Source: an uncultured Actinomycetes bacterium (GTDB taxonomy: Bacteria > Actinomycetota > Coriobacteriia > Anaerosomatales > CAVRZR01). Taken from it: a stretch of DNA of 64,000 nucleotides. The notes below the pieces were generated by a model. That model was not told the DNA's origin and ran no database searches. It saw only the letters and a program-made list of their open reading frames with translations. Below, piece after piece: positions 2,803 through 20,476 of the stretch. Made by a program: the position numbers and the translations under genes. The stretch's first letter is position 1; each line of letters opens with the position of its first letter. Location of the stretch: assembly GCA_963809535.1 (NCBI GenBank), contig CAWEJW010000001.1, positions 1,150,105 to 1,214,104 on the forward strand, in the 5' to 3' direction.

Positions 2803-3960
2803 CTACGGAAGCCGGTACTCCTGGGCGCCCGTCGTCGATCGAATCGGTCGGATGCGAACCACACTCGCCTTGAAGATGAGCTTCACACGCGAACCCACGG
2901 CAAGATCCAAGGCCAATGCTGACAGCCTCGAGACGGTCGACGCAAAGCGCAGACACCCGTGGGTGACCACTACTCGCTCCATCGCGCCGTCAGCCGACAG
3001 GTGGTCGACCACACCCTCGATCTGATTGCGCGCTGACGTCTTTGGCAGCTCGACGTCCGGCTCGAAGAGAAGGACATCCTCCGGCCGAACACCGACAACG
3101 ACGGGTGTGCCGACCTCGAAGTCCCCCATCGCGAAGATGTGCTCATCGCCGCAGTCCACGCGAACGATGCCCCCGTCGTTCGAGCCGACGACGCCCTCGA
3201 TCGGGCATTCCGCGCCGACGAAGGTCGCGACCCACTCGTCCACCGGCAATGCCAGGACGACCTCGGGTGCACCCTCGCTGACGATCCGGCCGTCGCGCAT
3301 GACCCCCATGCAATCGGCCACTACGGCGGCCTCATCTCGATCGTGGGTCACGTACAGCGTCGTGACATGCTCGCTCGCCAGTATGTCGGCAAACTCGAGC
3401 GACAACTGTCGCTTGAGCAACGGGTCGATGTAGGACAGCGGCTCGTCCAGCAATAGGAGGTCCGGCTCGAGCACGAGGGCCCTCGCAAGGGCGACCCGCT
3501 GCGCTTCGCCGCCCGACAGCGTCAGAGCACTTCTCTCTTGCCAGCCGTCCATGCCCATGCGAGCCAGCACTGCGGATACGCGCCTGGCACGCTCGTCCGC
3601 CCCGACGCTGCGCAGGCGAAGGCCATAGGCCACGTTGTCACGGACGGTGCCTCGCAGCAGATACGGCTTCTGGAAGACGGCGGCAACGCGGCGGCGCATC
3701 GACAGACTGTGCCGGTCTCCCTCAACACCGTCGAACAGGACGCGCCCGGTTGTCGGCTTCTCGAGCATACCGAGCACGCGAAGCAGGGTTGACTTCCCCG
3801 CACCGGACGCGCCGAGGAGGCAGTACGTCTTGCCAGACGCCAGCTCGATCACATCGACGTCGAGGACCGTCTTCTTGCGATACGCGACGGAAAGCTCCTC
3901 GCCCCGCACGAGCGGCGCGTCGGACTTCCCAGAGCCAGAGGCCAGAGCGTCAGCTTTCAT
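2803..3960 (-). CDS. tupC: Tungstate/molybdate ABC transporter ATP-binding protein with C-terminal TOBE domain
   Basis: Walker [18 protein letters not shown] signature, and a C-terminal TOBE-like beta domain ([22 protein letters not shown]). In an operon with tupA and tupB. Confidence 0.8.
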
Positions 3961-4654
3961 ACGCAGTCGACGTGTTCTGGAGCGCCGTGAGGGCTATGTT
4001 CACACTCAGAGCGATCCCGATGAGGATCATCGCCCAAGCCATTGCCGCGGCGAAGTCCCCTCGCGTCACGTTGGCCATGATCGCGGTGGTCATGACGTCC
4101 GTGTACCCTTCGATGCCGCCTCCGACGATCGACACGGCGCCGACCTCCGAGATGATGGCCGCGAAGCCTGCGATCACCGAGACGATGACTCCCCCGCGGG
4201 CCTCCTTCAGGATCGCGTAGGCCATCTGCATCCTCGACGCGCCCAACGCCTGGAGTTGAAGCCGGAGGTCACGTGCAACCGACTGCACGGCGACGGCAGT
4301 GACGCCGATCACGAGCGGTATTGCGAGAATCACCTGCGCGATGACCATGCCCTGCGGCGTGAACAGAAGGTCCAGGGTGCCCAAGGGACCCGATCTCGAG
4401 AGCGCCAGGTATACGAACAGACCAACCACCACAGGGGGAAAGCCCATAGCCGTGTTCACTAAGAGGATGACGATGGCACGTCCAGCAAATCTCCTGATGC
4501 CGAGAAAGTAGCCCAACGGAATGCCGAAGACCGCAGCGATCAGCACCGCAGAGCCGGAGACCATGAGGGAGAGAGTGACGACCTGGTAGACGCGGGAACC
4601 ACCGTGAAGAAGCAGCTGGATCGCGTTGGTTATGGCGGTGATGTAGATCTGCAT
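3950..4654 (-). CDS. tupB: Tungstate ABC transporter permease
   Basis: 234-aa polytopic permease with an EAA-like loop (LQALGASRMQMAYAILKEARGG). Overlaps the tupC start by 11 nt. Confidence 0.8.
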   Translation of the reverse strand: MQIYITAITNAIQLLLHGGSRVYQVVTLSLMVSGSAVLIAAVFGIPLGYFLGIRRFAGRAIVILLVNTAMGFPPVVVGLFVYLALSRSGPLGTLDLLFTPQGMVIAQVILAIPLVIGVTAVAVQSVARDLRLQLQALGASRMQMAYAILKEARGGVIVSVIAGFAAIISEVGAVSIVGGGIEGYTDVMTTAIMANVTRGDFAAAMAWAMILIGIALSVNIALTALQNTSTAYES

Positions 4655-4799: not shown

Positions 4800-6005
4800 C
4801 TACCAGTAACCAGGATTCGCTCTGAAGAGCGGGAAGCCGAACGTGTCGACTCCATACGCATTGATCGCCGATTTCGCCTGTGCGGACATAATCCAGCGCC
4901 GAAAGTCCTGCGCACCCTCTGGGTTCCTCGTGTACGGAACGGCGGTGGTGCGCCTCGTGACTTCGATGACGCTGTACTGGTTCTTGTAGACGCTGGATCC
5001 CTCGTCGACGATCTTGAGGTTCGTGACCGTCTTCAGCGTCACGGAACAGTTCAGCCACGTGCCACGGTCTGCCAGCGTGTAGCCGGCCTGCTGATCGGCT
5101 GCCGAAAGGGCCTGCGCCATACCCATAGTACCGGTGGCCTTGTACCACGACTGACCGGTCTGCGGATTGCCGATGGAGGCCCAGATCTCCTTCTCCTTGG
5201 TGTTGGTGCCGGAGTTGTCGTTGCGGGAGATGAAGATCGAGTTGGTCGACGCAATCTTGCCGAAGGCAACCACTGGTGTATCGGCATCGAGGATGCCTGC
5301 GGGGTTATTCTTCGGGCCGACAAGCACGTAGTCGTTGTACATCACCTTGAAGCGGGTTGCGCCCTTGTACGGCGTCAACGCGCCGGACACCCTGCCGCTC
5401 ATGAACGGCACTTCCAGTACGGGGCTGTGCACGAGCAGGACGTCGGCGTCGCCGCTACCGCCCAGCGCGATCGATGCGCCGGTTCCGAGGAACGCAGCCT
5501 TGACCGCGTACTCGGGACAGTCTCTCGCAAAGAGGGGCCTCATGGCTTCCCACAGTCCCGCGTCTCTGAACGACGTGGTCGATGCGAGGGTCAGCTGGTA
5601 CCTGACGCCAGGGCCGTTCTTCACGGCCAGCGTCGCCGTGCGAGACATCCCTGCTGAGGGGGCGGCGTAGCGCGCGCGGATGAAGAACTTCCCACCGAGT
5701 TTCGGCGTGTACTTGTACGACCACCGGCCGTCCGTCTTGATCAGCGGCTGGGAGATGACGGTCCACCAGGTACGCCCCGGCTTGCGGATCTCCAATGTGA
5801 GGCGCTTGCCGTGATACGCCTTGCTCACGCGGCCGCTCATGGTGAACGGGGCCGCCTTGTACTGATACGTCGAGCTTACGATCAGAGTCGAAATCGGGAC
5901 GGTTGCCGCGTGGGCAGCGACTGGCACGGCTAGTGCCGCCGCTAGAACCACCGCCACCAGTAGTGCGGCTCGCCGACGCATAGGCGAGCTCTTCAAGTGG
6001 GGCAT
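4800..6005 (-). CDS. tupA: Tungstate-binding protein TupA with signal peptide and an extra N-terminal domain of about 100 aa
   Basis: LASTTSFRDAGLW and SRNDNSGTNTKEKEIW match the TupA anion-binding motifs (TTTS..DSGL / SRGDNSGTH). Signal peptide ends AVPVAAHA-A. The second ATG (6005) is better spaced from GGAAAGGAG than ATG 6011. Confidence 0.85.
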   Translation of the reverse strand: MPHLKSSPMRRRAALLVAVVLAAALAVPVAAHAATVPISTLIVSSTYQYKAAPFTMSGRVSKAYHGKRLTLEIRKPGRTWWTVISQPLIKTDGRWSYKYTPKLGGKFFIRARYAAPSAGMSRTATLAVKNGPGVRYQLTLASTTSFRDAGLWEAMRPLFARDCPEYAVKAAFLGTGASIALGGSGDADVLLVHSPVLEVPFMSGRVSGALTPYKGATRFKVMYNDYVLVGPKNNPAGILDADTPVVAFGKIASTNSIFISRNDNSGTNTKEKEIWASIGNPQTGQSWYKATGTMGMAQALSAADQQAGYTLADRGTWLNCSVTLKTVTNLKIVDEGSSVYKNQYSVIEVTRRTTAVPYTRNPEGAQDFRRWIMSAQAKSAINAYGVDTFGFPLFRANPGYW

Positions 6006-6007
6006 AT

Positions 6008-6115
6008 GCATCTCCTTTCCAATACGGGAGGCCGCACGGTTCCCCGTGTGACCCTATCGTTCCGCTGACCGTTGCCAGCGCGTGCTGCAGAGGGTCGATG
6101 CGGAATCGGAGTCGC
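6008..6115 (-). promoter_or_regulatory. Structured leader RNA, Moco/Tuco-riboswitch-like (copy RS2), directly upstream of tupA
   Basis: Reverse strand reads GCGACTCCGA..TTCCGC/GCGGAA stem..CACGG-GGAA-CCGTG (GNRA hairpin)..GGCCTCCCGTATTGGAAAGGAGATGC. The outer helix GCGACTCC/GGAGATGC covers the tupA SD and first ATG. A 27-column block is near-identical to 10681..10707. Confidence 0.55.
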
Positions 6116-6148
6116 GCCGCTGCGGCGACGCGTCAAACCCATGGATAC

Positions 6149-6918: not shown

Positions 6919-7173
6919 CACTAAGTCCGCACTTAGGGACTATACCCAATGCCGAATGCGAAGTGCTAGACGCCCCGCATGAACGACGGATGAACCAGCG
7001 GCGGCTCTCGTCGCCGGGCCGCTTCGCACTCTCTGGTGAAACATGGACGGCTCGGAGTCAAACGGCTTGCCCCATCACATGCGATACTCGCGAAAGGCGA
7101 ACCACCCACAGAACGACGTTTCCGAGGCGTGCCACTACCTGCTGATGCGAGCCGACCGACCGGAAGGACACCT

Positions 7174-8394
7174 ATGGTGCTCGACAAGCGCGACTTGTAC
7201 CGGCTGCCGTGGTCGATGAACGACAACCCGATTGCGTGGTTGGAAGTCACCGACATCTGCAACATCCATTGCGAAGGTTGCTACCGTCAGCACCTCACGG
7301 GTCACAAGCCGCTCGAGCAGATGAAGGAAGAAGTCGACTTCTTCTGTCAGTGGCGCAATCCCGACAACTTCTCTCTTGCGGGCGGCGAACCACTTATCCA
7401 CCCAGAGATCCTCGATCTGGTTGCCTACATCGCCAGCAAGGGAGTCAAGCCCGTCATCCTGACCAACGCCAAGGCGCTGACGCCCGAGCTGCTCAAGGAA
7501 CTGAAGGCGGCCGGCGCAGCCGGCTTCACCATCCACATCGACAGCCATCAGGAACGGCCGAGCTGGGGCGGGAAGTCGGAAGCCGATCTGAACGAGCTCC
7601 GTCAGAAGTACGCCGACATGATCGCCGCCGAGGGCGGCATGTACGTGATCTTCAACTCGACGGTCTACCCGTCGACGTTCCAGGAAGTCCCGGACGTGGT
7701 GCGTTGGGGGCGAGCAAACATAGACCGCGTTCAGGGGCTCGTGTTCATCACGTACCGCACGGCGACCACCGATACGAGCGTGGCCATGAATCCGTTCGAT
7801 CAACAAGTCGACATGAGCATGCTGAGTTACACGCGCGACTCGTTCGAGGAGGAGTTCGTCACATCGCCCGAGGTCTACGAGCTGCTGCGGGAGCACTTCC
7901 CGGAGTACGACGCGTCCGGCTATCTGGGCGGAAGCGTCCGTCACGACTCTTTCAAGTGGCTCCTCGGCACGCAAGTCGGCAGCAAGCGCGAGATATACGG
8001 TTCAGTGGGCAAGCGCACGATGGAGATCGCTCAGGCGGGCCATCATCTCTTCACCGGAAGGTACCTGGCCTACCTTTCGCAATCGACCATCGGCCGCAAG
8101 GTGTTCCTGCTCTCGCCGTGGGACCGCAGCCTGCGCCAAGCCTGGAAGAGGAGGCTCGGCCAGGTGCCCCGTCGCCCTCAGAGTCTCTTCGACAGGATCT
8201 ACCTGCAGAGTATCGGGATTATCCAGGCTCCGGACATCCAGGCCGACGGCCGCGCCGACATGTGCGACTCCTGTCCGGACATCACCGTCTACGACGGCAA
8301 ATTCATCAACTCGTGCCGCATGGACGAATACCGGCTGTTCGGCGGTTTCGTCTCGATTCTCGACAAGGACAAGGTCGAGGTGCCGGAGAGTTGA
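7174..8394 (+). CDS. Radical SAM protein (unassigned subfamily) with C-terminal Cys cluster
   Basis: CNIHCEGC (CxxxCxxC) after LEVTDI, GGEPLIHPE motif, C-terminal CDSCPD..C. ATG 7174 is preceded by GGAAGGA. Confidence 0.85.
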   Translation: MVLDKRDLYRLPWSMNDNPIAWLEVTDICNIHCEGCYRQHLTGHKPLEQMKEEVDFFCQWRNPDNFSLAGGEPLIHPEILDLVAYIASKGVKPVILTNAKALTPELLKELKAAGAAGFTIHIDSHQERPSWGGKSEADLNELRQKYADMIAAEGGMYVIFNSTVYPSTFQEVPDVVRWGRANIDRVQGLVFITYRTATTDTSVAMNPFDQQVDMSMLSYTRDSFEEEFVTSPEVYELLREHFPEYDASGYLGGSVRHDSFKWLLGTQVGSKREIYGSVGKRTMEIAQAGHHLFTGRYLAYLSQSTIGRKVFLLSPWDRSLRQAWKRRLGQVPRRPQSLFDRIYLQSIGIIQAPDIQADGRADMCDSCPDITVYDGKFINSCRMDEYRLFGGFVSILDKDKVEVPES

Positions 8395-8395
8395 T

Positions 8396-9226
8396 GTGGC
8401 AGCGCTGACACCAAAGCTCTCCGTGGCCGACGCCCTTCGCAGCCTCGGGCGCATCCTTGCAGGCCGTCCCCAGGTGCCATCGGCGCTGGCGGGAAACGAG
8501 CTGCTCAAGATCGTCCTCAACCGCCGGAGCGTCCGCCGCTTTGCGGCGCGCCCCGTCGGCGACGACGTCTTCGCGGCGATACTCGAGGCCGGCCGACTCG
8601 CACCCTCGACGGTAAACCTCCAGAGCTGGACATTCTTGAGCTTCACCGCGGACACGTGGCAATCCGCGTTCGAACGTCCAATCCCCTTCAGGGCGCAGCA
8701 CGCGGTCATCGTGTGCGGGGACGCCCATCGGTATCGACAGGCTCTGGAAGGCTTTCCCCGCAGCCCGCTGGTCGAGTACACGCTGGCGGTGACGAACGCT
8801 TCTCTCGCCGCCATGAACATGAACGTCGCCGCTGAGGCGCTCGGCGTGGCGTCCGTCATGCTGTCCGAGACCGGGCGCAGCGGCCTGCTCGACCCAGGCT
8901 ACTTGAGGGATCAGCTCGGCCTGCCCGAGGGCGTCTTCCCGTTGATGACGCTCGTCTTCGGCTACGCAAGCGCCGCGCCTCCGCCCATGCCACCCAAGCT
9001 GCCGTTGGACGAGATTTGTTTCACGGACGGCCGCTACCACGAGGCCGACGAGGCAGTGCTGCGCGATTGGATGGCGCAGATGACGGCGGGGTACAAGGCG
9101 AGCCATCTGTTCTCGTCCATGGACGCGCAGCTTGACGTCTATCGATCCAAGATCGGCCAGGCGGAAGCGGACTTGACCGACATGATCTTCCGCGACGGGG
9201 AGACAGCTCCGGAATCGAATCCCTAG
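8396..9226 (+). CDS. Nitroreductase-family flavoprotein
   Basis: LNRRSVRRFAARPV..ILEAGRLAPSTVNLQSW is the nitroreductase signature. The GTG starts 2 nt after the radical SAM stop, suggesting translational coupling. Confidence 0.85.
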   Translation: MAALTPKLSVADALRSLGRILAGRPQVPSALAGNELLKIVLNRRSVRRFAARPVGDDVFAAILEAGRLAPSTVNLQSWTFLSFTADTWQSAFERPIPFRAQHAVIVCGDAHRYRQALEGFPRSPLVEYTLAVTNASLAAMNMNVAAEALGVASVMLSETGRSGLLDPGYLRDQLGLPEGVFPLMTLVFGYASAAPPPMPPKLPLDEICFTDGRYHEADEAVLRDWMAQMTAGYKASHLFSSMDAQLDVYRSKIGQAEADLTDMIFRDGETAPESNP

Positions 9227-9237
9227 GACGCCCGGGG

Positions 9238-10068
9238 TCAGTGCCGGCTGATGATCGTCCCGACGTCCTCGCCCGCGAGAGCGCGGGTCAGGTTCCCCTT
9301 CTCCAAGCCATTGATGATCTGTATGTAGTCGAGTACCTGGCTGTTCCGCAGAATGTCGAGACACGGCCTCTCTAGGATCAGATCGTCGAGCCCTAGCTCC
9401 ACCAATTCCGAGACCGTGATCCTCGGAATGAACTGCGCGTCAGGATTCTTCTTCGGATCGTCGGTGTAGAGACCCTTCTCGTCCTTTACGAAGATGCACG
9501 TTCGCGCGCCGATAAGGTCCGCCATAAGGATGGTTCCGACGTCAGTACGGTGGATGGGGATGTGGCCCTTTTCGGGAGGGATGGCGAAGAAGTCGTAGGG
9601 CGGCATGCCGCTCGTGACCGGCACACAACCCTGCGCGAAGTAGTTGGGCAGTTTCACGATCGCATCCTGATCGATCTCGATGCCCCCGTGCTGGGCGAGT
9701 AGCGTCGCAACGAGGAGTGCATTCTGTCTCGACACCGAACTGCCGAAGGCGGCGATGATCCCCGTGGGCATGCCGAGTTCGAGCCCGATCGCATAGATGT
9801 GACGGCTTCGGGTCCCGCCGCCGGTCATGAGAAGCATCTTGTGCTCGTCCTTGTTGTCGACGATCTCCTCGATGACGGCAGGCAGGGCTCTCTTGCCGCG
9901 GTCGCAGATCGACTGCCCTCCGATCTTGACAACGTTCACGTCGGGGAAGAGGCGCTGCTGAGGAACGTCCTCGAGCGAGTCAAGGAAGCTCTCACTCACC
10001 AGGCTCTCACCCATGAGCTTGCTCTTGATGTGCAGACGCATGCTGTCACGTTCGCGCACGAGCGGCAT
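9238..10068 (-). CDS. Molybdenum storage protein (MosA/MosB, amino-acid-kinase fold) homologue, single copy
   Basis: VVKIGGQSICDRG, GGGTRSRHIYAIGLELGMP, SGMPPY, IPIHRTDVG, FVKDEKGLYTDDPKKNPDAQFIPRITV and NGL..GNLTRALAGEDVGTIIS track my recollection of the Azotobacter MosA/B sequences along the whole length. GGGAGG lies 6 nt before ATG 10068. Confidence 0.75.
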   Translation of the reverse strand: MPLVRERDSMRLHIKSKLMGESLVSESFLDSLEDVPQQRLFPDVNVVKIGGQSICDRGKRALPAVIEEIVDNKDEHKMLLMTGGGTRSRHIYAIGLELGMPTGIIAAFGSSVSRQNALLVATLLAQHGGIEIDQDAIVKLPNYFAQGCVPVTSGMPPYDFFAIPPEKGHIPIHRTDVGTILMADLIGARTCIFVKDEKGLYTDDPKKNPDAQFIPRITVSELVELGLDDLILERPCLDILRNSQVLDYIQIINGLEKGNLTRALAGEDVGTIISRH

Positions 10069-10133
10069 CGGCAACCTCCCGGTCCTCGGAGCACGGGCTT
10101 CTCATGTCCGATCTTGAAGCCGGTCGCGCGGGA

Positions 10134-10355
10134 TCACTTCTCTTCGTCGGCCTGGAACTGGTGACTCCCCTCCTCGACCTTGAGATCGACCAGCTCGGCG
10201 CTAACAGCTTGGGCGATCTGCTCCAGTTCACTGCGACGCAAGTGCTTGGCGTGGATCTTCAGGTCCGTGCCGGACACCGCGACCAGATAGAACCGCGGCT
10301 TCTTCTCACCCTCGTCGACTTTGCGACGCTCGCGATAGAAGATCTTGCCTGGCAT
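10134..10355 (-). CDS. Small conserved-looking hypothetical protein (73 aa) upstream of the MoSto gene
   Basis: MPGKIFYRERRKVDEGEKKPRFYLVAVSGTDLKIHAKHLRRSELEQIA.. A strong SD GAAGGAGG lies 6 nt before ATG 10355. Same strand as the MoSto gene, 59 nt upstream of ORF start 10074 (65 nt from the called ATG 10068). Confidence 0.6.
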   Translation of the reverse strand: MPGKIFYRERRKVDEGEKKPRFYLVAVSGTDLKIHAKHLRRSELEQIAQAVSAELVDLKVEEGSHQFQADEEK

Positions 10356-10603
10356 GTCGGCCTCCTTCGATGCGTTGTTGCGGCCTGCCCCAACTCTCTT
10401 GTCCATACCCAAGATGCGCTCCACATCGCCCGGCGTCGCGCTATGAGCTGTGGACGTGCACGCCGAACAGCGGATCCGTAGCCTTCCATCAAGCCAAGCG
10501 AAGCGCCAGGCGCTGTCGCCCGAGGCGACTGGTCCACTGGTGCTCCCCCGGGCAGAACCCTAAGGCAGAGTTTAGGCACGCTCACCTTGGGGTACATTGC
10601 GTG

Positions 10604-10706
10604 CGTCTCCGAGCGTCTCGACCTAATGGCCAAGAAGACCGACGGTCGTTGCGCCCGCAGGGTGCGGATGGAAACAGCCGGGCCTCCCGTGCTTGGAAAG
10701 GGGATG
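10604..10706 (+). promoter_or_regulatory. Structured leader RNA, Moco/Tuco-riboswitch-like (copy RS1)
   Basis: CGTCTCC-GAG..CGACC/GGTCG stem..CGGATG-GAAA-CAGCCG (GNRA hairpin)..GGCCTCCCGTGCTTGGAAAGGGGATG. Outer helix is CGTCTCC/GGGGATG. A TACATT -10-like box at 10593..10598 sits just upstream. Confidence 0.55.
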
Positions 10707-10775
10707 CTGATGGCACGCTCGTGCCGTCGTCTTGTCGTCCGCCCCAGTCTCGCGGGGCAAGCGAAGCTACTTCCT

Positions 10776-10879
10776 CCTCTCCTACCGAGGCCGACCATCC
10801 CTGCATCGGATGTAGCCACGCAGTAGGGAACTGCGGGCTCGCAGCAGGTGCGACCGGGGGTCGTGCCGGAAAGGGGAGG
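10776..10879 (+). promoter_or_regulatory. Possible third, more divergent tandem copy of the same leader (RS3) covering the SD of the cytochrome gene
   Basis: CCTCTCC-TA-CCGAG ... AGTAGGGAA, CTGCG-GGCT-CGCAG hairpin ... GCCGGAAAGGGGAGG. A 7-bp outer helix CCTCTCC/GGGGAGG would sequester the SD 5 nt before ATG 10884. Lacks the GGCCTCCC block. Confidence 0.3.
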
Positions 10880-10883
10880 TGCC

Positions 10884-12374
10884 ATGCCGAGGATCAGGGT
10901 TGTCTTGCGCATCGCGATCGTCGCGGCCGTCTTGGCGGTCGTCGGCGGTACTGCGGCCGTTGCGTACGCTGCCTACCACCACATGGGAGAGGTCGACTCT
11001 GGCTACTTCATCTCTGTCCATCCGAACGCCGCCGGCACGAAGCTCGACTCGTGCGGCCTGTGCCATGCCGGTGGCAGCTACACACAGTCGGGCAAGGATG
11101 TAGTGCTGGGAAGCTGCCAGTGGTGTCACTTCAAGTTCGGATATGAGGGCGAGGGCGGGCAAGCAGGGCTCCTCGCCACGCTCAACGCCTACGGCCTCGC
11201 CTACCTGAACGCAGGTCGCAGCAGCGCGGCGGTCTCGGCGATCGAGGGATTCGACTCTGACGGGGATGGCTTCTCGAACGCCGACGAGATCGCCGCAGTG
11301 CGATATCCCGGTGATAAGAACGACGACCCGACGAAGGTGACCGCGCCCTCGCGTGTCTATACCCTCGCCGAGATCAAAGCGATGCCGCCCTACAAGCAGT
11401 TCATGCTCATGAACACGAGCAAGTCCGGGGACTTCTACTGCACGTACACCGGCGTGCCAATGACGTATGTGCTGAAGGACGCGGGCATGTTGTCGACCGC
11501 CACCGGCATCAATGTGTTCGCTGCTGATGGCTTCTCGACGTCGCATCCGCTGGACCCGACGCCCGGGCTCTACCACGTGCGGGGGACCTATCCGTCCACG
11601 ACCTTCTTCTACAACGTCGAGGCCGACAAGAAGCTCACGTCGTACGGCTGGTGCGACTACAGCGCGGCGTCGGTCAAGGGCTGGAAGAACGGCCGTCGCA
11701 TCACCGGTCTCAAGATGCTTCTGGCCTACAAGTATGAGGGAAAGTACCTCGTACCCGGCGCCCTGGGACCGGACAACAGGCTCACGCCGGAGAGCGAGGG
11801 CCCGTTCCGCGTGGTGCCTCCACAGGTAGTCCCGGGTCCGCCGGACCAAGCGTCCACCGCCCTAAACCAGAACGTCCTCTGGCCATACAACAAGAACTGG
11901 GATCACAACGCCGGCTCCTCGAGCAAATGCGCCACGATCATCAAGGTTGGCCCGCTTCCCGCGGGGACTACTGACATCAACGTCCTCGAGGCCGGCTGGG
12001 ACTACGTCGACGCAGGCAAGATCGTCGTCTACGGCGCAATCGACCCGATCCCGACGGTGCGCGAGAAGCTTCACACGCTTGCCCAGTCCGTCGCCAAGCT
12101 CGACGCCAGCGCGTTCAGGGGCAAGAGCAGGTGGGAAAGGCTCGCGCGGAGGTTCTGCATTCTAGGCGAGATCTGGGTTGTCGACAGGATGGTCGCGAAG
12201 GGCAAGATCGACGGTGCGGTCCAGAGGATCACGCACGATCTTGTCCCGAAGGTTGACGGATGGGTCAAGCGCGGCAAAGCCGACTGCGACGACTGGATCG
12301 TCGACAGCCAGGCACAGCGAACGGTGTACTGGGCCTTGCAAGAGCTGCTCACACTGCTGAACGCCGCCGAGTAG
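10884..12374 (+). CDS. Secreted di-haem c-type cytochrome fused to a Ca-binding-like repeat and a molybdopterin-oxidoreductase-like domain
   Basis: N-terminal TM/signal (IAIVAAVLAVVGG), two CxxCH motifs (CGLCH, CQWCH), DSDGDGFSNADE (thrombospondin-3/dockerin-like Ca loop). It then has an Oxidored_molyb-like segment (YTLAEIKAMP..YCTYTGVPMTYVLKDAG..FAADGF). Confidence 0.75.
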   Translation: MPRIRVVLRIAIVAAVLAVVGGTAAVAYAAYHHMGEVDSGYFISVHPNAAGTKLDSCGLCHAGGSYTQSGKDVVLGSCQWCHFKFGYEGEGGQAGLLATLNAYGLAYLNAGRSSAAVSAIEGFDSDGDGFSNADEIAAVRYPGDKNDDPTKVTAPSRVYTLAEIKAMPPYKQFMLMNTSKSGDFYCTYTGVPMTYVLKDAGMLSTATGINVFAADGFSTSHPLDPTPGLYHVRGTYPSTTFFYNVEADKKLTSYGWCDYSAASVKGWKNGRRITGLKMLLAYKYEGKYLVPGALGPDNRLTPESEGPFRVVPPQVVPGPPDQASTALNQNVLWPYNKNWDHNAGSSSKCATIIKVGPLPAGTTDINVLEAGWDYVDAGKIVVYGAIDPIPTVREKLHTLAQSVAKLDASAFRGKSRWERLARRFCILGEIWVVDRMVAKGKIDGAVQRITHDLVPKVDGWVKRGKADCDDWIVDSQAQRTVYWALQELLTLLNAAE

Positions 12375-12413
12375 TCCTGCACAAGAGGTCGTTGCACGCC
12401 CGTCCGAGGCGAT

Positions 12414-12443
12414 GAGAGGGCTCCGGCTTGCCGGGGCCCTCTC
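12414..12443 (+). terminator. Strong hairpin between the cytochrome gene and the transporter gene (no U-tract)
   Basis: GAGAGGGCTCCGG-CTTG-CCGGGGCCCTCTC, a 13-bp stem with one G-U pair. It rules out the ORF-track start at 12412. Confidence 0.4.
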
Positions 12444-12477
12444 GCTACCCACCCGTGAATCCGTCGTACGATGGGTC

Positions 12478-13641
12478 ATGCAGTCACGGTCCGGCCGGGT
12501 CGATGGAACGAGGCGAGTGAAGAAGCAGCCGATCAAGGTCAACCTGACCGAGCTGGCTGGCTCGATGGGCGATTTCGGCACCCTCCTACCGTTGGCGGTT
12601 GGCTACATCGCCGTGTGTGGCCTCAACCCGGCGGGCTTGCTCGTGATGATGGGCCTGGCCAATATCGCCACCGGTCTCGTCTACCGCCTCCCAATGCCTA
12701 TCGAGCCTATGAAGGTGCTTGCAGTCGTGGCCATCGCCCAACATTGGACGCCTTCAATGGTGTATGCGTCCGGATTCGGCATGGGCATGGTATGGCTCTT
12801 CTTGGGCGTCACGGGAATCATCAGTTGGATCGCACGCGTGACGCCAAGACCGGTGGTAATGGGCATCCAGACGACTCTCGGCGTGCTGTTGGCCATTGAG
12901 GCGCTCCGTCTGGGATCGACTTCATGGGCACTCGCCATTCTAGGCGTCGTCATCGTGCTCACTCTCCGGGGCAACCGATATGCACCGGCAGCAATCGTGC
13001 TAGTCCTTCTTGGTTTGGGCGTCATGCTGCTCAAGGGTGACCTATCGCATCTGGCAACACCCGAGCTGAAACTGCCGTCCTTCGCCACGTTCACCGGCAA
13101 ACAGGTATGGCAGACACTCTTGCTCGCCGGATTCGCGCAGGTTCCACTCACCGCAACCAATGCAGTCATCTCCACGTCGCACCTGATCACGAGCTACTGG
13201 CCCGATGAGTACGTCAGCCCGAGGAAGCTCTCGTTCAGCCACGGCATCATGAACGCCACCGCTCCGTTCTTCGGCGGCATGCCCATGTGTCACGGCGCGG
13301 GAGGTCTCGCTGGCCAGTACTACTACGGCGCACGAACTGCAGGGACCAACCTTATCGAAGGCACGATCGAAATCGTTCTCGGGCTCTTCTTCGCGGCTTC
13401 CATCGCGGCGCTCTTCATCGCGTTTCCCAAAGCGATCATCGGAGCGATGATGTTCCTGGTCGGCGTCGAGCTGATGAAGTTCGCGCGGCACGTGAGGCCT
13501 GGTCGCGACCTCATCGTGTTGGGCGCGACTGTCGGAATCGCACTACTGACGAACATGGCCTACGGCTTCCTGGGTGGCATCGCCGTGCATGAGGCGCTCA
13601 AACGCATACCGAAGCGGAACACAGGCGAAGGAGGCCAGTAG
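12478..13641 (+). CDS. MOT1/SulP-related putative molybdate (or tungstate) transporter
   Basis: LTELAGSMGDFGTLLPLAVGY..GLANIATGLVYRLPMPIEPMKVLA resembles the MFS_MOT1 molybdate-transporter repeat, and the protein is polytopic. Start is uncertain (ATG 12478 or GTG 12517). Confidence 0.7.
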   Translation: MQSRSGRVDGTRRVKKQPIKVNLTELAGSMGDFGTLLPLAVGYIAVCGLNPAGLLVMMGLANIATGLVYRLPMPIEPMKVLAVVAIAQHWTPSMVYASGFGMGMVWLFLGVTGIISWIARVTPRPVVMGIQTTLGVLLAIEALRLGSTSWALAILGVVIVLTLRGNRYAPAAIVLVLLGLGVMLLKGDLSHLATPELKLPSFATFTGKQVWQTLLLAGFAQVPLTATNAVISTSHLITSYWPDEYVSPRKLSFSHGIMNATAPFFGGMPMCHGAGGLAGQYYYGARTAGTNLIEGTIEIVLGLFFAASIAALFIAFPKAIIGAMMFLVGVELMKFARHVRPGRDLIVLGATVGIALLTNMAYGFLGGIAVHEALKRIPKRNTGEGGQ

Positions 13642-14149: not shown

Positions 14150-15565
14150 CTAGGGAAGAGTGTCTGCCGAGGGCAGACGCACGACCACTGTCGTACCTGC
14201 ACCAGGCATCGATGCGATCTCGACCGAGCCGTTCATGGCCTCTACGAGCTGGCGTGTGACAGACATGCCGAGACCGATCCCATCGGTGTCCTTGCCCACG
14301 TCCGAGCCTCGCTCGTAGCGGACCCATACCCGACCAAGCGACTCCTCATCCATCCCCCGCCCGTCATCCTGTACTGAGATCTCCAGGAAGTCATCAGCGC
14401 CTGTAAGAAGAACGGCGACGTGCGTTCCTGCCGGGTTGTGAACGAGCGCATTGCCGATCAGGTTGATGAGCGCTCGCTCAAGCAGCTTTCGGTCGACAAT
14501 GGCGAAGTGGGACAGCGAAGGTAGGCGGCAAGAGACGCTGTCTGCACCTGAGGGAAACGCCGCTCTCGCGCTGTCGACCACGCTGAGCAGGAAGTCAGAA
14601 AGATCTATGCGCTCCAGTCTTAGAGGCAGTGAGCCTTCCCTGACTTGGAAGGTGAGCAACAGGTCTTCGACTAGCTGCTGCACCCGCTGCGTCTGGCTGG
14701 CGATGATGCCCGCTTGGCGTCGCTCTTCGTCAGGCAGGTCGGAGCGTTCGTCGGCAAGAAGCTCCGCATAGCCTCGGATTGATGAAAGTGGCGTGCGAAT
14801 GTCGTGGGAGACGCCGGAGAGCCACTCCTGACGGAAGGTGAGGCCCTTCAGCCTCTCGGACATCCGGTCGAACGCCCTGCCCAGATCCCCAAACTCGTCG
14901 GCGCTGGGCAGCCCAATCCGATAGTCAAGGTCTCCTCCTCCTATCGCCTCGGTGCCCGCGTTCAGCGATTGCAGGGACCGCGTGATGTCTCGTCGAAGTG
15001 CAAGCAAACCAGCCGTGAGCAAAGCGGCTGCAAGTATCGTCAAGGCGCTAACCGTTCCAGATGTTCGCCGTTCTCTCGTCACGATTTCCGCGCTTATCGA
15101 CTGGACGAGTTCCCCGATCGCGCCCTTCGCGTCCGTGGACCGTATGAAGAGCTGCTCTGACAGCCGCTCCTCGGCTTCTCGGTCCACGGGGATGGCGGTC
15201 GCCCCGGCCTCATGGATGGCCACGATCCGTACGAAGAGCTCCCTGACCGCTTGGGCGTCTTGTGCGACCGTTGCAAGGGCCTGCTGATCGCGCGCTCTGC
15301 TGCCAGATGCGGCCTTGGTGATATCTCGGACGGCCTCATCAGAGGCAGCAATGAACTGCTGACTCGATCGGGCATCGTGATGGAGAAGGTAGGAACGCGC
15401 CAAGCCGTCAACCTCCTCAAGGTCTCCGCGCGCCTCAACGATCAAGATCTGCCTGTTCTGAAGTCCGACCGTCGGAAAATACGAGATCAGCACCCCGGCC
15501 ACAGCGAGCGCCGCTACGACCGCCGGCACGAGCGCCGCGAGAGTCAGTTTCGTCGAGATGCGCAA
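14150..15565 (-). CDS. Sensor histidine kinase (TM-sensor-TM-HAMP-HisKA-HATPase), with no cognate regulator adjacent
   Basis: H-box SHDIRTPLSSIRGY, N-box IGNALVHN, DDGRGM, GIGLGMS. TTG start at 15565 follows GAAGGAA. Confidence 0.85.
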   Translation of the reverse strand: MRISTKLTLAALVPAVVAALAVAGVLISYFPTVGLQNRQILIVEARGDLEEVDGLARSYLLHHDARSSQQFIAASDEAVRDITKAASGSRARDQQALATVAQDAQAVRELFVRIVAIHEAGATAIPVDREAEERLSEQLFIRSTDAKGAIGELVQSISAEIVTRERRTSGTVSALTILAAALLTAGLLALRRDITRSLQSLNAGTEAIGGGDLDYRIGLPSADEFGDLGRAFDRMSERLKGLTFRQEWLSGVSHDIRTPLSSIRGYAELLADERSDLPDEERRQAGIIASQTQRVQQLVEDLLLTFQVREGSLPLRLERIDLSDFLLSVVDSARAAFPSGADSVSCRLPSLSHFAIVDRKLLERALINLIGNALVHNPAGTHVAVLLTGADDFLEISVQDDGRGMDEESLGRVWVRYERGSDVGKDTDGIGLGMSVTRQLVEAMNGSVEIASMPGAGTTVVVRLPSADTLP

Positions 15566-15921: not shown

Positions 15922-15996
15922 TGGTGGGCGCTATAGGATTTGAACCTATGACCCCTTCCGCGTCAAGGAAGTGCTCTCCCCCTGAGCTAAGCGCCC
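15922..15996 (-). tRNA. tRNA-Val (anticodon GAC), CCA encoded
   Basis: GGGCGCTTAGCTCAGGGGGAGAGCACTTCCTTGACGCGGAAGGGGTCATAGGTTCAAATCCTATAGCGCCCACCA folds as a cloverleaf. Anticodon loop is TTGACGC. Confidence 0.95.
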
Positions 15997-16122
15997 GATG
16001 CTTGCTGCGGGGAGGCAGCGAAGGGTATTGTACCAGCCCCGCGAGCATGAGAAACCCCCCATTTGGGGCCCCTGGTCTCGGCTTGCGCGCCCCTAATGCC
16101 GCTGTTAGACTACCCTTCGCGC

Positions 16123-16198
16123 GCGGACGTGGCTCAGTTGGTAGAGCACAACCTTGCCAAGGTTGGGGTCGCGGGTTCGAATCCCGTCGTCCGCTCCA
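16123..16198 (+). tRNA. tRNA-Gly (anticodon GCC), CCA encoded
   Basis: GCGGACGTGGCTCAGTTGGTAGAGCACAACCTTGCCAAGGTTGGGGTCGCGGGTTCGAATCCCGTCGTCCGCTCCA. A candidate promoter TTGCGC-17-TAGACT lies just upstream. Confidence 0.95.
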
Positions 16199-16288
16199 TG
16201 ACCCGTCCGAAGGCTGGTCCAACGGGTTCGCACGGCAGCCCGACCGATCGGCCTTCTTCCTTGACAGGCGCCCTCGGCGCCTAAGGTC

Positions 16289-16362
16289 GGCGACGTCGCC
16301 AAGTGGCAAGGCAGGGGCCTGCAAAGCCCTTATCCCCAGTTCGAATCTGGGCGTCGCCTCCA
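16289..16362 (+). tRNA. tRNA-Cys (anticodon GCA), CCA encoded
   Basis: GGCGACGTCGCCAAGTGGCAAGGCAGGGGCCTGCAAAGCCCTTATCCCCAGTTCGAATCTGGGCGTCGCCTCCA. Acceptor GGCGACG/CGTCGCC, anticodon loop CTGCAAA. Confidence 0.95.
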
Positions 16363-17496: not shown

Positions 17497-18093
17497 CTAC
17501 TCGCCCCACCGGGCGAACAGCTCATGGTCGATCCCCAACACATCGAGGACTTTGCCCACGACGAAGTTCACGATGTCATCCAGACTCTGCGGGCGCTGAT
17601 AGAACGCCGGTGCGGCTGGAAGGATGACGGCGCCCGCCTCGGCAAGCGAGGTCAGATTCCGAAGGTGGACGACTGAGAAGGGCGTCTCGCGCGGCACAAG
17701 GACGAGCGGTCGGCGCTCCTTGAGCATCACGTCAGCGGCACGCTCGGGCAGGTTGCCGGCAAGACCGCAGGCAATCGCTCCCACGAAACCCATGGACGCA
17801 GGTGCTACGACCATTCCGTCCACGCGGTGCGAGCCCGACGCCATGGGATCGAACAGATCGTTCACACTCGCGTAGCGCAGAGGCGCGTCGTTTCCGAGCT
17901 CCAGGTAGCCCTTCAACCCGTTAGCAGGCTCGTCGATCGGCAGATCGAATCCGAGTTCGTAGGAGGTCACGTCACGCCCGGCGTCGGTCATCGTGACCGC
18001 GACCTCATGTCCGGCGAGCACCAGCTGTTCCACCAGGCGCAGGCCATACGCACTTCCAGAAGCACCCGTGATCACGACTGTATAGAGTCCCAT
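17497..18093 (-). CDS. ubiX: Flavin prenyltransferase UbiX
   Basis: MGLYTVVITGASGSAYGLRLVEQL.. with full-length UbiX/Pad1 architecture. Clustered with UbiA- and UbiD-family genes. Confidence 0.9.
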   Translation of the reverse strand: MGLYTVVITGASGSAYGLRLVEQLVLAGHEVAVTMTDAGRDVTSYELGFDLPIDEPANGLKGYLELGNDAPLRYASVNDLFDPMASGSHRVDGMVVAPASMGFVGAIACGLAGNLPERAADVMLKERRPLVLVPRETPFSVVHLRNLTSLAEAGAVILPAAPAFYQRPQSLDDIVNFVVGKVLDVLGIDHELFARWGE

Positions 18094-18105
18094 TCCAGCT
18101 CCTTG

Positions 18106-19011
18106 CTATGTCTGCAGGCAATCCGCGAGCGCGCCCACGAAGACGACGATAGCGATGATGCCGTTCACCGTGAAGAACGCTGCATTCACGCGGGATAGAT
18201 CATCCCGCGTGACAATCGAGTTCTCATACCCCAGGAGAAAGGCAGCGAGCGCCACTCCTCCGTACCAGAACACGCCGGCTCCGGCGAGATACCCTGCGAG
18301 AGCCAGCAACGCCACGGTCGCGATGTGGTCGAAGCGAGTCTGGGTCAGCGCACGCGGAATCCCAAAGTCCACGGGCACGGAGTGAATCTTGTCACGGATG
18401 TCGCACGCGTAGTCCTGCGTGGCGTAGATGATGTCGAAGCCAGCGGTCCACAGGAGCACCGCTAGACCCAAGACCCAAGGTGCCGGATCCGCGAGCGCGG
18501 CCCCAACTGCTGCCCACCCAGCGATCGGCGCAAGACCAAGGCACATGCCGAGCCAGTAGTGGCACAACCAGGTGAAGCGCTTCGTGTACGGGTAGACGAC
18601 GAACGCCACCAGGGGAATCGGCGAGAGCCACCGCGTCAGAGGAGCCAGCTGGCAGACCGCGACAAGGTAGGCCGCGAGGACTACGGCAGCGAAGAGCCAA
18701 ACCTCCCACGTCTTCAGACGGCCCGCGGGAACCGCTCGCGAGGCCGTGCGCGGATTGCGCGCGTCGATCTCGCGATCCACCGCCCGGTTCACCACGAACG
18801 CGAACGACCGCGCGCCCACCATCGCAACGGTGATCCAGAGGATCTCGCTCCACGAAGGCAGCCCGGATCTCGCGGCCGCCGCCCCGTACAGAGCTCCTAC
18901 ATACGCGTACGGCAGAGCGAATACCGAGTGTTCGAGCTTGACGAGCTCGACGAACGTCCGTACCTTCTCAGCGACCCTACCCAAGCCCGAGATCGCCCCA
19001 CATCGCGTCAA
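18106..19011 (-). CDS. UbiA-family aromatic polyprenyltransferase (quinone biosynthesis)
   Basis: Polytopic, with VNRAVDREIDARNPRT and YATQDYACD Asp-rich motifs. Start is TTG 19011 or TTG 18984, both overlapping the end of the UbiD-family gene. Confidence 0.85.
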   Translation of the reverse strand: MTRCGAISGLGRVAEKVRTFVELVKLEHSVFALPYAYVGALYGAAAARSGLPSWSEILWITVAMVGARSFAFVVNRAVDREIDARNPRTASRAVPAGRLKTWEVWLFAAVVLAAYLVAVCQLAPLTRWLSPIPLVAFVVYPYTKRFTWLCHYWLGMCLGLAPIAGWAAVGAALADPAPWVLGLAVLLWTAGFDIIYATQDYACDIRDKIHSVPVDFGIPRALTQTRFDHIATVALLALAGYLAGAGVFWYGGVALAAFLLGYENSIVTRDDLSRVNAAFFTVNGIIAIVVFVGALADCLQT

Positions 19012-20476
19012 TCCTGGCCTTGACCTCGGGATTCATCACGAGCGACTCGGGCCACTCACGCTCGTGTCCCTCACCCGCGATCGGCCGTGTCGCGTCGATG
19101 CCCATCTTGAAGCCGAACGACTCGTAGTTACTCGAATGGTCGAGCCGATCCAGCGGACCCTTGCTGATGAGAAGGTTCCGGCTCGGGTCGACGTTGTTGA
19201 AACAGCGCCAGGCGACTTGGGAGTAGTCGTGGCAGTCGACGTCCTCGTCCACGACGATGACAAACTTCGTGAACATCATCTGGCCCATCGACCAGGCAAA
19301 ATTCATCACGCGGAACGCCTGCCCCGGGAACTCCTTCTTGATCTGGAAGATCGCGCAGTTGTGGAACACACCCTCGAGCGGCAGATCGTAGTCGACGACC
19401 TCGGGCATCATCGCCTTGACCACGGGCAGGAACAGCCGTTCGGTGGCCTTGCCGAGGTAGCAGTCCTCCATGGGTGGCTGGCCGACGATCGTCGCCGGAT
19501 AGATCGCGTTCCTTCGCATCGTGATGGTATCGACGTGGAACACGGGGAAGTAGTCCGCGAGAGAGTAGTAGCCGGTATGGTCGCCGAACGGACCCTCCCA
19601 ACGCGTCTCGTCCGTCGGCACGTAGCCCTCGAGCACCATCTCGGCGTGAGCGGGCACCAGGAGATCGTTCGTGAGCGAGCTGACGACCTCCACCGGTTCT
19701 CCTCTCAGGATCCCGCTGAACAGGTACTCGTCGATGATCGGTGGCACGGGCGCCGTCGCCGAGAAGATGGTCACGGGGTCTGCACCAAGTGCCACCGAGA
19801 CGGGCATCCTGTCGTAGCCTGCGGCTTTCCACGCGCGCAGGTTTTTGGCCCCATCGTGATGCACGTGGATGTGCATCCCAGTCGTCTGCTGGTCGAAGAC
19901 TTGAAGGCGGTACATCCCGACGTTCAAGCGGCCCTTGATCGGGTCTTTGGTCACGACGAGCGGCAGCGTGACGAAGGGACCGCCGTCCTCGGGCCACGTC
20001 GTCAGCACCGGTAGTTGTGTCAGGTCGACGTCGTCACCCTGCCGGACGACCTGCTGGCAGGGCGCCTTGCCACGCTTCACCTCTTTGGCGCCGACGCCCG
20101 CAAGGTCCTTCAGGTTCATCAGGATGCCGAGCTTGTCTCGCATGGATGCAGGCGCGTCGAGCGGCAGCAAGTCCATGAGCTGGCGCCCCTTGGCGTCCAA
20201 GTCCCGCCAAGAGCCGGTCTCGGCGTCGACGCCCAGAGCCCACGCCATCCGGTCGTACGAACCCATCAGATTGATGGCGACCGGGAAGTCGTAGCGCCGT
20301 CCGCTCTCACGGTCCACGGGATTCTCGAACAGCAGAGCCGGCCCCACGTGCTTGCTCACCCGGTCGGTGATCTCGCCGATCTCGAGCTTGGGGTCGACTT
20401 CGGCAGACACTCGCACGAGCTGCCCCTTGGCCTCGAGCAGCGCGATGAAGTCCCGAAGGTCGTTGACGGGTGACAT
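18977..20476 (-). CDS. ubiD: UbiD-family (prFMN-dependent) decarboxylase
   Basis: 499 aa. LRDFIALLEAKGQLVRVSAEVDPKLEIGEI.., VVTKDP..GRLNVGMYRLQV. Confidence 0.9.
   Translation of the reverse strand: MSPVNDLRDFIALLEAKGQLVRVSAEVDPKLEIGEITDRVSKHVGPALLFENPVDRESGRRYDFPVAINLMGSYDRMAWALGVDAETGSWRDLDAKGRQLMDLLPLDAPASMRDKLGILMNLKDLAGVGAKEVKRGKAPCQQVVRQGDDVDLTQLPVLTTWPEDGGPFVTLPLVVTKDPIKGRLNVGMYRLQVFDQQTTGMHIHVHHDGAKNLRAWKAAGYDRMPVSVALGADPVTIFSATAPVPPIIDEYLFSGILRGEPVEVVSSLTNDLLVPAHAEMVLEGYVPTDETRWEGPFGDHTGYYSLADYFPVFHVDTITMRRNAIYPATIVGQPPMEDCYLGKATERLFLPVVKAMMPEVVDYDLPLEGVFHNCAIFQIKKEFPGQAFRVMNFAWSMGQMMFTKFVIVVDEDVDCHDYSQVAWRCFNNVDPSRNLLISKGPLDRLDHSSNYESFGFKMGIDATRPIAGEGHEREWPESLVMNPEVKARIDAMWGDLGLG

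Follow-up and report, generated by a model that had tools for sequence, protein, structure and literature searches.

To our knowledge, the molybdenum storage protein MoSto, with its kinase-fold subunits MosA (alpha) and MosB (beta), is the only known adenosine triphosphate (ATP)-driven storage cage for metal oxides, and work on it is confined to a single organism. Polyoxotungstates are also stored by MoSto (2OGX, 7ZSE; PMC4504029), which has been stated to have no known homologues (PMC6448029), and in a 2026 phylogenomic survey MosAB was counted among the rarest molybdenum-related genes, found in select taxa only and with its earliest gene events placed after the Archean (PMC13144720). The first store of tungsten to be given a defined physiological role was the TOBE protein Tub, reported only in 2025 (PMC11980592). 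A gene coding for a MoSto homologue of 276 amino acids (aa) is localised in a 64-kb stretch of contig CAWEJW010000001.1 (64,000 nt, hereafter the window) from an uncultured bacterium of the Coriobacteriia (Anaerosomatales). In place of a second kinase-fold paralogue, this gene is accompanied by a conserved gene for an unrelated protein of 73 aa, and the same pairing recurs across a range of anaerobic bacteria and in an archaeon. No paper on the single-gene members of the family or on the small partner was found in a literature search.

A beta-type member of the MoSto family

The open reading frame (ORF) of the MoSto-like gene is intact. Its start is the ATG at position 10068, with a GGGAGG ribosome-binding site just upstream; the longest ORF opens at a TTG at 10074, and the product of the called gene on record (P0001) is identical to the 276-aa protein. 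The protein matches the Pfam family AA_kinase (E 2e-28), and in a phmmer search against the PDB its residues 18-276 were aligned on residues 10-268 of MosB (2ogx_B, E 9.4e-71), with MosA (2ogx_A) following at E 2e-43 and the best uridine monophosphate (UMP) kinase at 4e-8. A three-way alignment gives 46.7% identity to MosB and 33.7% to MosA, the two subunits themselves being 43.5% identical. The AlphaFold2 model (predicted local distance difference test, pLDDT, 83; predicted template modelling score, pTM, 0.82) is of low confidence in the N-terminal 30 residues, and its best Foldseek matches are seven MoSto beta chains (E about 1e-28, template modelling scores of 0.72-0.75), followed by alpha chains and then by UMP and isopentenyl-phosphate kinases. 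Both in full-length sequence and in fold the protein thus matches MoSto clearly above the UMP kinases, and it is classed here as a beta-type member of the MoSto family. The initial annotation of this DNA had assigned the protein to the MosA/MosB family over its whole length, which is borne out by these searches, and all the motifs that it quoted were found, with the small difference that the protein has NGLEKGNLTRALAGEDVGTII where MosB has NGLVPGN.

This family resemblance is already recorded in databases, where many members carry the JGI label "molybdenum storage protein"; the NCBI label is "uridine kinase". Relatives of the 276-aa protein are numerous, with at least about 8,000 recovered in a protein database search at E<=1e-10.

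Two mutually exclusive architectures

A scan of one genome per GTDB species, made with patterns specific to the 276-aa protein, yielded 80 loci encoding proteins with 59-87% identity to it, each with a flank of up to 10 kb per side. These span the Coriobacteriia/Anaerosomatales, Syntrophales, Syntrophorhabdales, Desulfomonilia, Leptospirales/Spirochaetota, Syntrophomonadaceae, Aminicenantia and other taxa. The other lineages of the family were represented by a comparison set of 81 loci, made up of 80 metagenome contigs and an Azospirillum plasmid locus; the query for the metagenome scan was an alignment of these other lineages, narrower than a family-wide alignment, which was too diverse for patterns.

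In the comparison set, two or three adjacent paralogues are present at 65 of the 81 loci; the remaining 16, which appear to be single, are each located on a short contig or at the end of a contig. The mosB and mosA genes of Azospirillum sp. B510, for example, are 11 bp apart. The initial annotation had noted only one paralogue in the window, and a tblastn search of all six frames of its 64 kb with the 276-aa protein indeed returned that protein alone. A second family member was likewise absent from the flanks of the 80 genome loci, where double hits were due to frameshifts only, and none was found within 5 kb in the relatives from the Chloroflexota and Methanocorpusculum, so that two adjacent paralogues were observed neither in the window nor at the 80 loci nor in these sister lineages. 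The Chloroflexota/Anaerolineales sister (P0123, 56% identity) is a single gene flanked by a divergent Tup-like ATP-binding cassette (ABC) transporter, and the Methanocorpusculum sister (P0130, 42% identity) is also a single gene. Taken over the 80 loci and the two sister lineages, the single-gene form occurs in at least six bacterial lineages and one cultured methanogen genus. Neighbour-joining trees recover the clade as monophyletic with 97-98% bootstrap support and join it to the Chloroflexota and Methanocorpusculum sequences with 85%; the deeper nodes, on which the position of the clade relative to the alpha/beta split depends, are poorly supported, with (W,B) at 59% versus (A,B) at 35% in one analysis and values of 20-34% in another.

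The constant feature of the single-gene form is its small partner. A homologue of the 73-aa gene was found by tblastn directly upstream of the MoSto-like gene and on the same strand at 79 of the 80 loci, the exception (L067) holding only 2 bp of upstream sequence. When all ORFs within 7 kb of the MoSto-like gene were clustered for the window and the 80 genome loci together (81 loci), this small ORF was the most conserved neighbour, at a median gap of 47 bp. In the window its ATG at 10355 is preceded by the ribosome-binding site GAAGGAGG, and 65 nt separate it from the start of the MoSto-like gene. The Methanocorpusculum homologue codes for 75 aa and lies 18 bp upstream of the MoSto-like gene, while that of the Chloroflexota (54% identity, E 3e-16) belongs to an operon on the other strand, past the MoSto-like gene at a distance of about 500 bp. 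No homologue of the small gene is present at the 81 loci from the other family lineages. The family therefore comprises two mutually exclusive architectures, with either two kinase-fold subunits or one such subunit and the small protein. The description of a single gene in the initial annotation holds as far as a second paralogue is concerned, but it passed over the conserved 73-aa gene alongside. Because the MoSto-like gene is one half of a conserved pair, the purely homo-oligomeric cage that had been implied is not the simplest inference.

Two variants were seen elsewhere in the family. Three adjacent paralogues occur at the metagenome loci L085, L086 and L127, so the number of subunits varies within the family, and in P0132, of 732 aa, a polytopic membrane protein of about 450 residues carries at its C-terminus, joined by Gly-rich linkers, a fused MoSto-like domain that is 42% identical to the window protein. 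The latter may be a membrane-tethered form of the family.

The 73-aa partner protein

The N-terminal two-thirds of the 73-aa protein are basic, and the tail is acidic and variable. The consensus of its homologues reads MAGKIFYRERxKVGEGEKKPRFxLVAVAGxDLKxYxKHLRKxELEQIAxAVGAELVLL, followed by the variable acidic tail, and the residues R8, P20, R21, H38 and E43 are invariant in all three lineages that have it (the clade, the Chloroflexota and Methanocorpusculum). An identical called gene (P0271) is unnamed in the sources, and those homologues that have been named are nearly all "hypothetical protein". Apart from noise, no Pfam or NCBIfam match was found for the protein even at E<=1, nor any PDB match by profile. 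AlphaFold2 predicts a beta-beta-beta-alpha-beta arrangement (pLDDT 62), for which Foldseek returned nothing significant; as a conjecture, so weak a model would be in keeping with folding upon a partner. The possibility that the small protein is a remnant of the alpha subunit was considered and ruled out, the hhalign probability against the MoSto family being 1.4%.

Some loci depart from the common arrangement of the small gene. Two copies are found upstream of a single MoSto-like gene at three loci of the Syntrophales/Desulfomonilia type (L051 9193-9881, L053 9155-9819 and L056 8468-9927). The Chloroflexota homologue is of 86 aa, with an extra basic tail, and is co-oriented with a gene for a DUF134 (putative DNA-binding) protein beside ModA/ModB-like genes (L163 5893-6604 and L165 5930-6641, both on the minus strand).

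Nucleotide site, proposed gate and cluster ligands

Conservation of the 276 positions was scored across 76 clade members, and 98 positions are conserved at a threshold of >=95%. Among these, 47 are common to both MoSto subunits, 22 to MosB only and six to MosA only, while 23 are shared with neither and are specific to the clade. The MosB-only set includes Met155 in SGMPPY, which corresponds to Met149 of MosB and to a Phe in MosA, as well as K195-D196-E197. K48, G83-G84-G85-T86-R87, M155-P-P-Y, R174-T-D and K195-D-E...G199-L-Y...D204-P-K are all present and at least 95% invariant in the clade, and together they make up what we take to be the ATP/molybdate site of the beta subunit. In MoSto itself the beta subunit reportedly binds ATP and molybdate and moves the oxoanion into the cage, and Brunle et al. 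are said to have proposed Met-beta149 as the gate into the cage (PNAS, 2019).

The MosA side chains that bind the clusters covalently are Glu129, His140 and His156 (PMC4504029). The aligned positions are D133, Y143 and D159 in the 276-aa protein and G, S and K in MosB; the clade as a whole has G/D, Y (99%) and D (87%) there. Since these ligands are absent, the polyoxometalate pockets and the alpha-type cluster chemistry of MoSto cannot be carried over to the window protein. An alignment with MosA and MosB, which had been proposed as a check on the ATP-site and cluster-pocket residues, found motifs of the former conserved and the covalent cluster ligands missing. As read from the alignment, the protein keeps the catalytic signature of the family and has no alpha-type cluster ligands, and given the missing ligands and the missing two-paralogue architecture it is not to be called a MoSto without qualification.

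Between 78% and 91% of the members of the single-gene clade have a cysteine at each of four positions (C55, C148, C191 and C236 in the numbering of the window protein). At three of these, other residues are found in MosA and MosB (I49/M51, V231/L233 and N142/T144), and the Syntrophomonadaceae members are without two of the four. The cysteines might conceivably serve in redox chemistry or in the binding of thiometalates or metal.

Molybdenum and tungsten genes in the neighbourhood

The features of the window that are related to the MoSto-like gene or to molybdenum and tungsten (Mo/W) are listed in Table 1.

Table 1. MoSto-like gene pair and Mo/W-related features of the window. Coordinates are positions in the 64-kb stretch; Moco/Wco, molybdenum/tungsten cofactor.
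Feature	Coordinates	Strand	Evidence
ABC ATPase with C-terminal TOBE (oxoanion-binding) domain	2803..3960	(-)	ABC_tran E 5e-31, TOBE E 9e-9; best NCBIfam match WtpC, 230 bits, below cut-off
TupB-like ABC permease	3950..4654	(-)	NF038017, 227.6 bits (passes); TupB equivalog 154 bits, cut-off 320
TupA-like periplasmic oxoanion-binding protein	4800..6011	(-)	PBP_like_2 E 1.8e-27; only NCBIfam hit TupA, 151.8 bits, cut-off 400
Second Moco/Wco riboswitch, directly before the tupA-like gene	5996..6122	(-)	41 bits, gathering threshold 36; E 2.6e-6
Beta-type MoSto homologue, 276 aa, amino-acid-kinase/UMP-kinase fold	9238..10068	(-)	MosB E 9.4e-71, MosA E 2e-43; Foldseek; motifs
Conserved 73-aa partner gene (MPGKIFYRER...)	10134..10355	(-)	Upstream homologue at 79/80 related loci
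Moco/Wco riboswitch aptamer (RF01055), divergent intergenic region	10595..10719	(+)	68 bits, gathering threshold 36; E 3e-14; model matched in full
GEGP-motif dihaem protein, first gene after the riboswitch	10848..12374	(+)	NCBIfam NF041762, 417 bits, cut-off 300
MOT1-family (MFS_MOT1) putative molybdate/tungstate permease	12412..13641	(+)	Pfam PF16983, E 8.5e-52, two stretches

Both riboswitches score above the RF01055 gathering threshold. The one in the divergent intergenic region faces the genes for the dihaem protein and the MOT1-family permease, away from the MoSto-like pair. The other overlaps the annotated start of the tupA-like gene, and the true start of this gene is therefore probably downstream of position 6011. 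The initial annotation had placed a tungstate transporter next to the MoSto-like gene. Tup-like genes are confirmed, but they lie 3.2 kb away with three genes between, and their TupA and TupB matches are below the NCBIfam cut-offs. As these are their best or only specific hits, the name Tup-like is justified, and specificity for tungstate is at most suggested. The Mo/W context as a whole is nevertheless stronger than had been described, with two riboswitches, a MOT1-like permease and an ABC ATPase with a TOBE domain. The remainder of the window codes for no molybdenum or tungsten enzyme.

The context recurs at related loci. Among the 45 loci whose flanks each reach 5 kb or more, 28 have a Mo/W gene (TupA/TupB/ModA-like, a regulator with HTH_17 and PBP_like domains, or a molybdopterin oxidoreductase) within 7 kb of the MoSto-like gene. 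About ten Syntrophales/Syntrophorhabdales loci share a same-strand order of HTH_17+PBP_like regulator (TunR/TaoR type), tupA, tupB, ATPase, c3, small gene and MoSto-like gene. Three Moco riboswitches are present at L017, and one precedes the tupA-like gene at each of the Coriobacteriia loci L008, L012 and L015; there, as in the window, they precede transporter genes instead of the MoSto-like pair. The gene designated c3 codes for a protein of about 245 aa and, at 47 of the 81 loci (for example L017 8964-9692 and L033 7584-8321), is the immediate upstream neighbour of the small gene in the same orientation, the window not being among them. Over its first 155 residues the c3 protein matches TCKD, the kinase domain of TiaS that uses ATP (profile E about 1e-7; PDB 3AMT/4RVZ/3U02). 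DDTD, PYTSHNS, GSDPG and HGGT are invariant motifs of c3, which is missing from nearly all Coriobacteriia loci; L013 alone has a copy, on the opposite strand.

Several other genes of the window were noted. The presence of a dihaem protein under a Mo-cofactor riboswitch, beside an oxoanion permease, has no obvious explanation. Convergent with the MoSto-like gene, at 7036-9226 (+), are genes for a radical S-adenosylmethionine protein of 452 aa, which matched neither SPASM nor any equivalog, and for a nitroreductase-family protein; neither belongs to the neighbours conserved at related loci. Three tRNA genes lie at 15925-16359, after a histidine kinase gene (14150-15565), and the long ORFs that overlap them are probably spurious. 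A UbiX-like flavoprotein, a UbiA prenyltransferase and a UbiD decarboxylase are encoded in a row at 17497-20476 (-), forming an unrelated decarboxylase module of the prenylated flavin mononucleotide type.

Proposed role and alternative explanations

The reading preferred here, to which about even weight is given, is that the pair forms a beta-type, ATP-dependent complex for the storage or handling of tungstate and/or molybdate, composed of one kinase-fold subunit and a small basic protein. It builds on the beta-type signature, the nucleotide-site motifs with the gating Met, the absence of a nearby paralogue, the strict co-occurrence with the small gene in bacteria and an archaeon, and the Mo/W-linked neighbourhoods. 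The 276-aa protein would form a hexamer like that of the UMP kinases, which the small basic protein would bind, decorate or complete. ATP would be spent in capturing tungstate and/or molybdate that Tup-like, Mod-like or MOT1-like transporters encoded nearby have brought into the cell, and the captured metal would be held for Mo/W-cofactor enzymes. The host organisms rely on such enzymes, among them formate dehydrogenases, aldehyde oxidoreductases, class II benzoyl-CoA reductase and formylmethanofuran dehydrogenase. The metal, which may be tungsten, molybdenum or both, might be kept as polynuclear clusters as in MoSto, although the known covalent ligands are absent.

A number of observations weigh against this proposal. 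The covalent cluster ligands of MosA are not conserved, and the model of the small protein is weak. About 38% of the well-flanked loci have no recognisable Mo/W gene within 7 kb. No riboswitch on its own strand precedes the pair in the window, nor does one at the six Coriobacteriia and five Syntrophales loci considered. The TupA and TupB matches below their equivalog cut-offs suggest a transporter of this type and do not establish tungsten over molybdenum. Finally, the contig is at least 1.44 Mb long and the paralogue search of this genome covers 64 kb of it, a point that bears on one of the alternatives below.

The catalytic signature without the alpha-type ligands could also be that of an ATP-dependent enzyme which processes oxoanions and does not store them. 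The kinase-fold protein would then activate or discriminate tungstate or molybdate through a transient phospho- or adenylyl-oxoanion and pass it on to a carrier or to cofactor synthesis, with the small basic protein as acceptor or chaperone and no cage filled with polynuclear clusters. The same-strand array with c3 and its TiaS-TCKD-like kinase domain at 47 loci suggests a multi-step pathway, and in 2019 Brunle et al. reportedly proposed in PNAS that the beta site of MoSto acts as a molybdate kinase, which is likewise counted in favour of such an enzyme. All characterised members of the family are, however, storage cages, a hexamer of the UMP-kinase type already has an enclosed cavity, and no genes of cofactor biosynthesis (moa, moe, mog) are among the conserved neighbours. 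A processing enzyme of this kind is the main alternative to a store, but it is considered unlikely.

It is improbable that the protein belongs to a conventional alpha/beta MoSto with its alpha gene at a distant site in the genome, the small protein being an unrelated accessory or regulator. The limited stretch searched in this genome would leave room for such a gene, and a paralogue with 35% identity would escape the patterns used in the genome scan, yet the two subunits are adjacent in every lineage that has both, no alpha gene lies within the flanks of up to 10 kb at the 80 loci or in the two sister lineages, and the single and paired architectures are split cleanly by the presence or absence of the small gene. 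Slightly less probable still is a nucleotide or metabolite kinase with no link to metals, as the NCBI labels "uridine kinase" and "amino acid kinase family protein" on relatives would have it. The amino-acid-kinase fold and a weak similarity to pyrH_arch (E 1.3e-17) agree with these names, but the PyrH equivalog models (TIGR02075/TIGR02076) are matched with 64.2 bits against a cut-off of 158.05 for the archaeal type and 34.7 against 243.9 for the bacterial type, and identity to Escherichia coli PyrH is 23%, compared with 47% to MosB. The UMP-site segment GNPFFTTD is moreover replaced by a MoSto-type SGMPPY...HRTD segment with an insertion, and the neighbourhood is related to molybdenum and tungsten and not to nucleotide metabolism.

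A bolder extension of the storage or handling complex is that the 73-aa protein is a true structural subunit which replaces alpha. Together with a beta-type homo-hexamer it would make up a cage of a new design, in which six ATP sites are active rather than three and on which syntrophic bacteria and some methanogens would chiefly depend for ATP-driven storage of tungsten. This extension is speculative and, on present evidence, rather doubtful.

The interest of the system lies chiefly in its conserved partner, its breadth across anaerobes and an archaeon, and its link to tungsten handling. If the pair is an ATP-dependent store of tungsten or molybdenum, it would represent a second route of tungsten storage and a natural experiment in which a heteromeric cage has been rebuilt with a different partner, and it would be grounds for re-examining when metal storage evolved. 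Should the 73-aa protein prove to be a structural subunit, MoSto-type storage would be a tungsten-linked innovation of anaerobes, far wider in extent than the rare MosAB trait. For work on a cultivable organism, Methanocorpusculum is a point of entry.

Comparison with known systems

With UMP kinases such as PyrH the window protein shares the amino-acid-kinase fold. UMP kinases are homohexamers (trimers of dimers), and a homo-hexamer of the single MoSto-like subunit is therefore structurally plausible. The protein differs from PyrH in its low identity, in scores far below the equivalog cut-offs, in the replaced UMP-binding segment and in a genomic context other than nucleotide metabolism.

The small partner superficially invites comparison with the TOBE molbindins (Mop, ModG and the Tub protein of Eubacterium limosum; PMC11980592), which are small cytoplasmic holders of tungstate or molybdate, of about 70 aa, encoded beside Tup/Mod transporters in anaerobes. 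In contrast to these, the 73-aa protein gave no match to TOBE at a threshold as loose as E<=1 and is predicted to have a beta-beta-beta-alpha-beta arrangement, and the molbindins act without ATP and without a kinase-fold partner.

The closest described system is the MoSto of Azotobacter vinelandii (PDB 2OGX, 4F6T, 4NDO, 6GU5, 6RKD). The likeness extends over the full-length fold and family, an N-terminal arm of similar length and 47% identity to MosB, and both the motifs of the nucleotide site and the SGMPPY segment, including the proposed gate Met, are conserved; the genomic link to molybdenum and tungsten uptake fits a role in storage or handling. Unlike MoSto, the window has one kinase-fold gene and not two adjacent paralogues, and its constant companion is the unrelated 73-aa protein. 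The MosA ligands E129, H140 and H156 are absent from the window clade, which has invariant residues of its own (for example Y143), a highly conserved N-terminal arm and the four Cys residues in 78-91% of its members. Where the hosts of MoSto are aerobic diazotrophs, those of the single-gene form are strict anaerobes of the Coriobacteriia, Syntrophales, Syntrophorhabdales, Syntrophomonadaceae, Spirochaetota, Anaerolineales and Methanocorpusculum.

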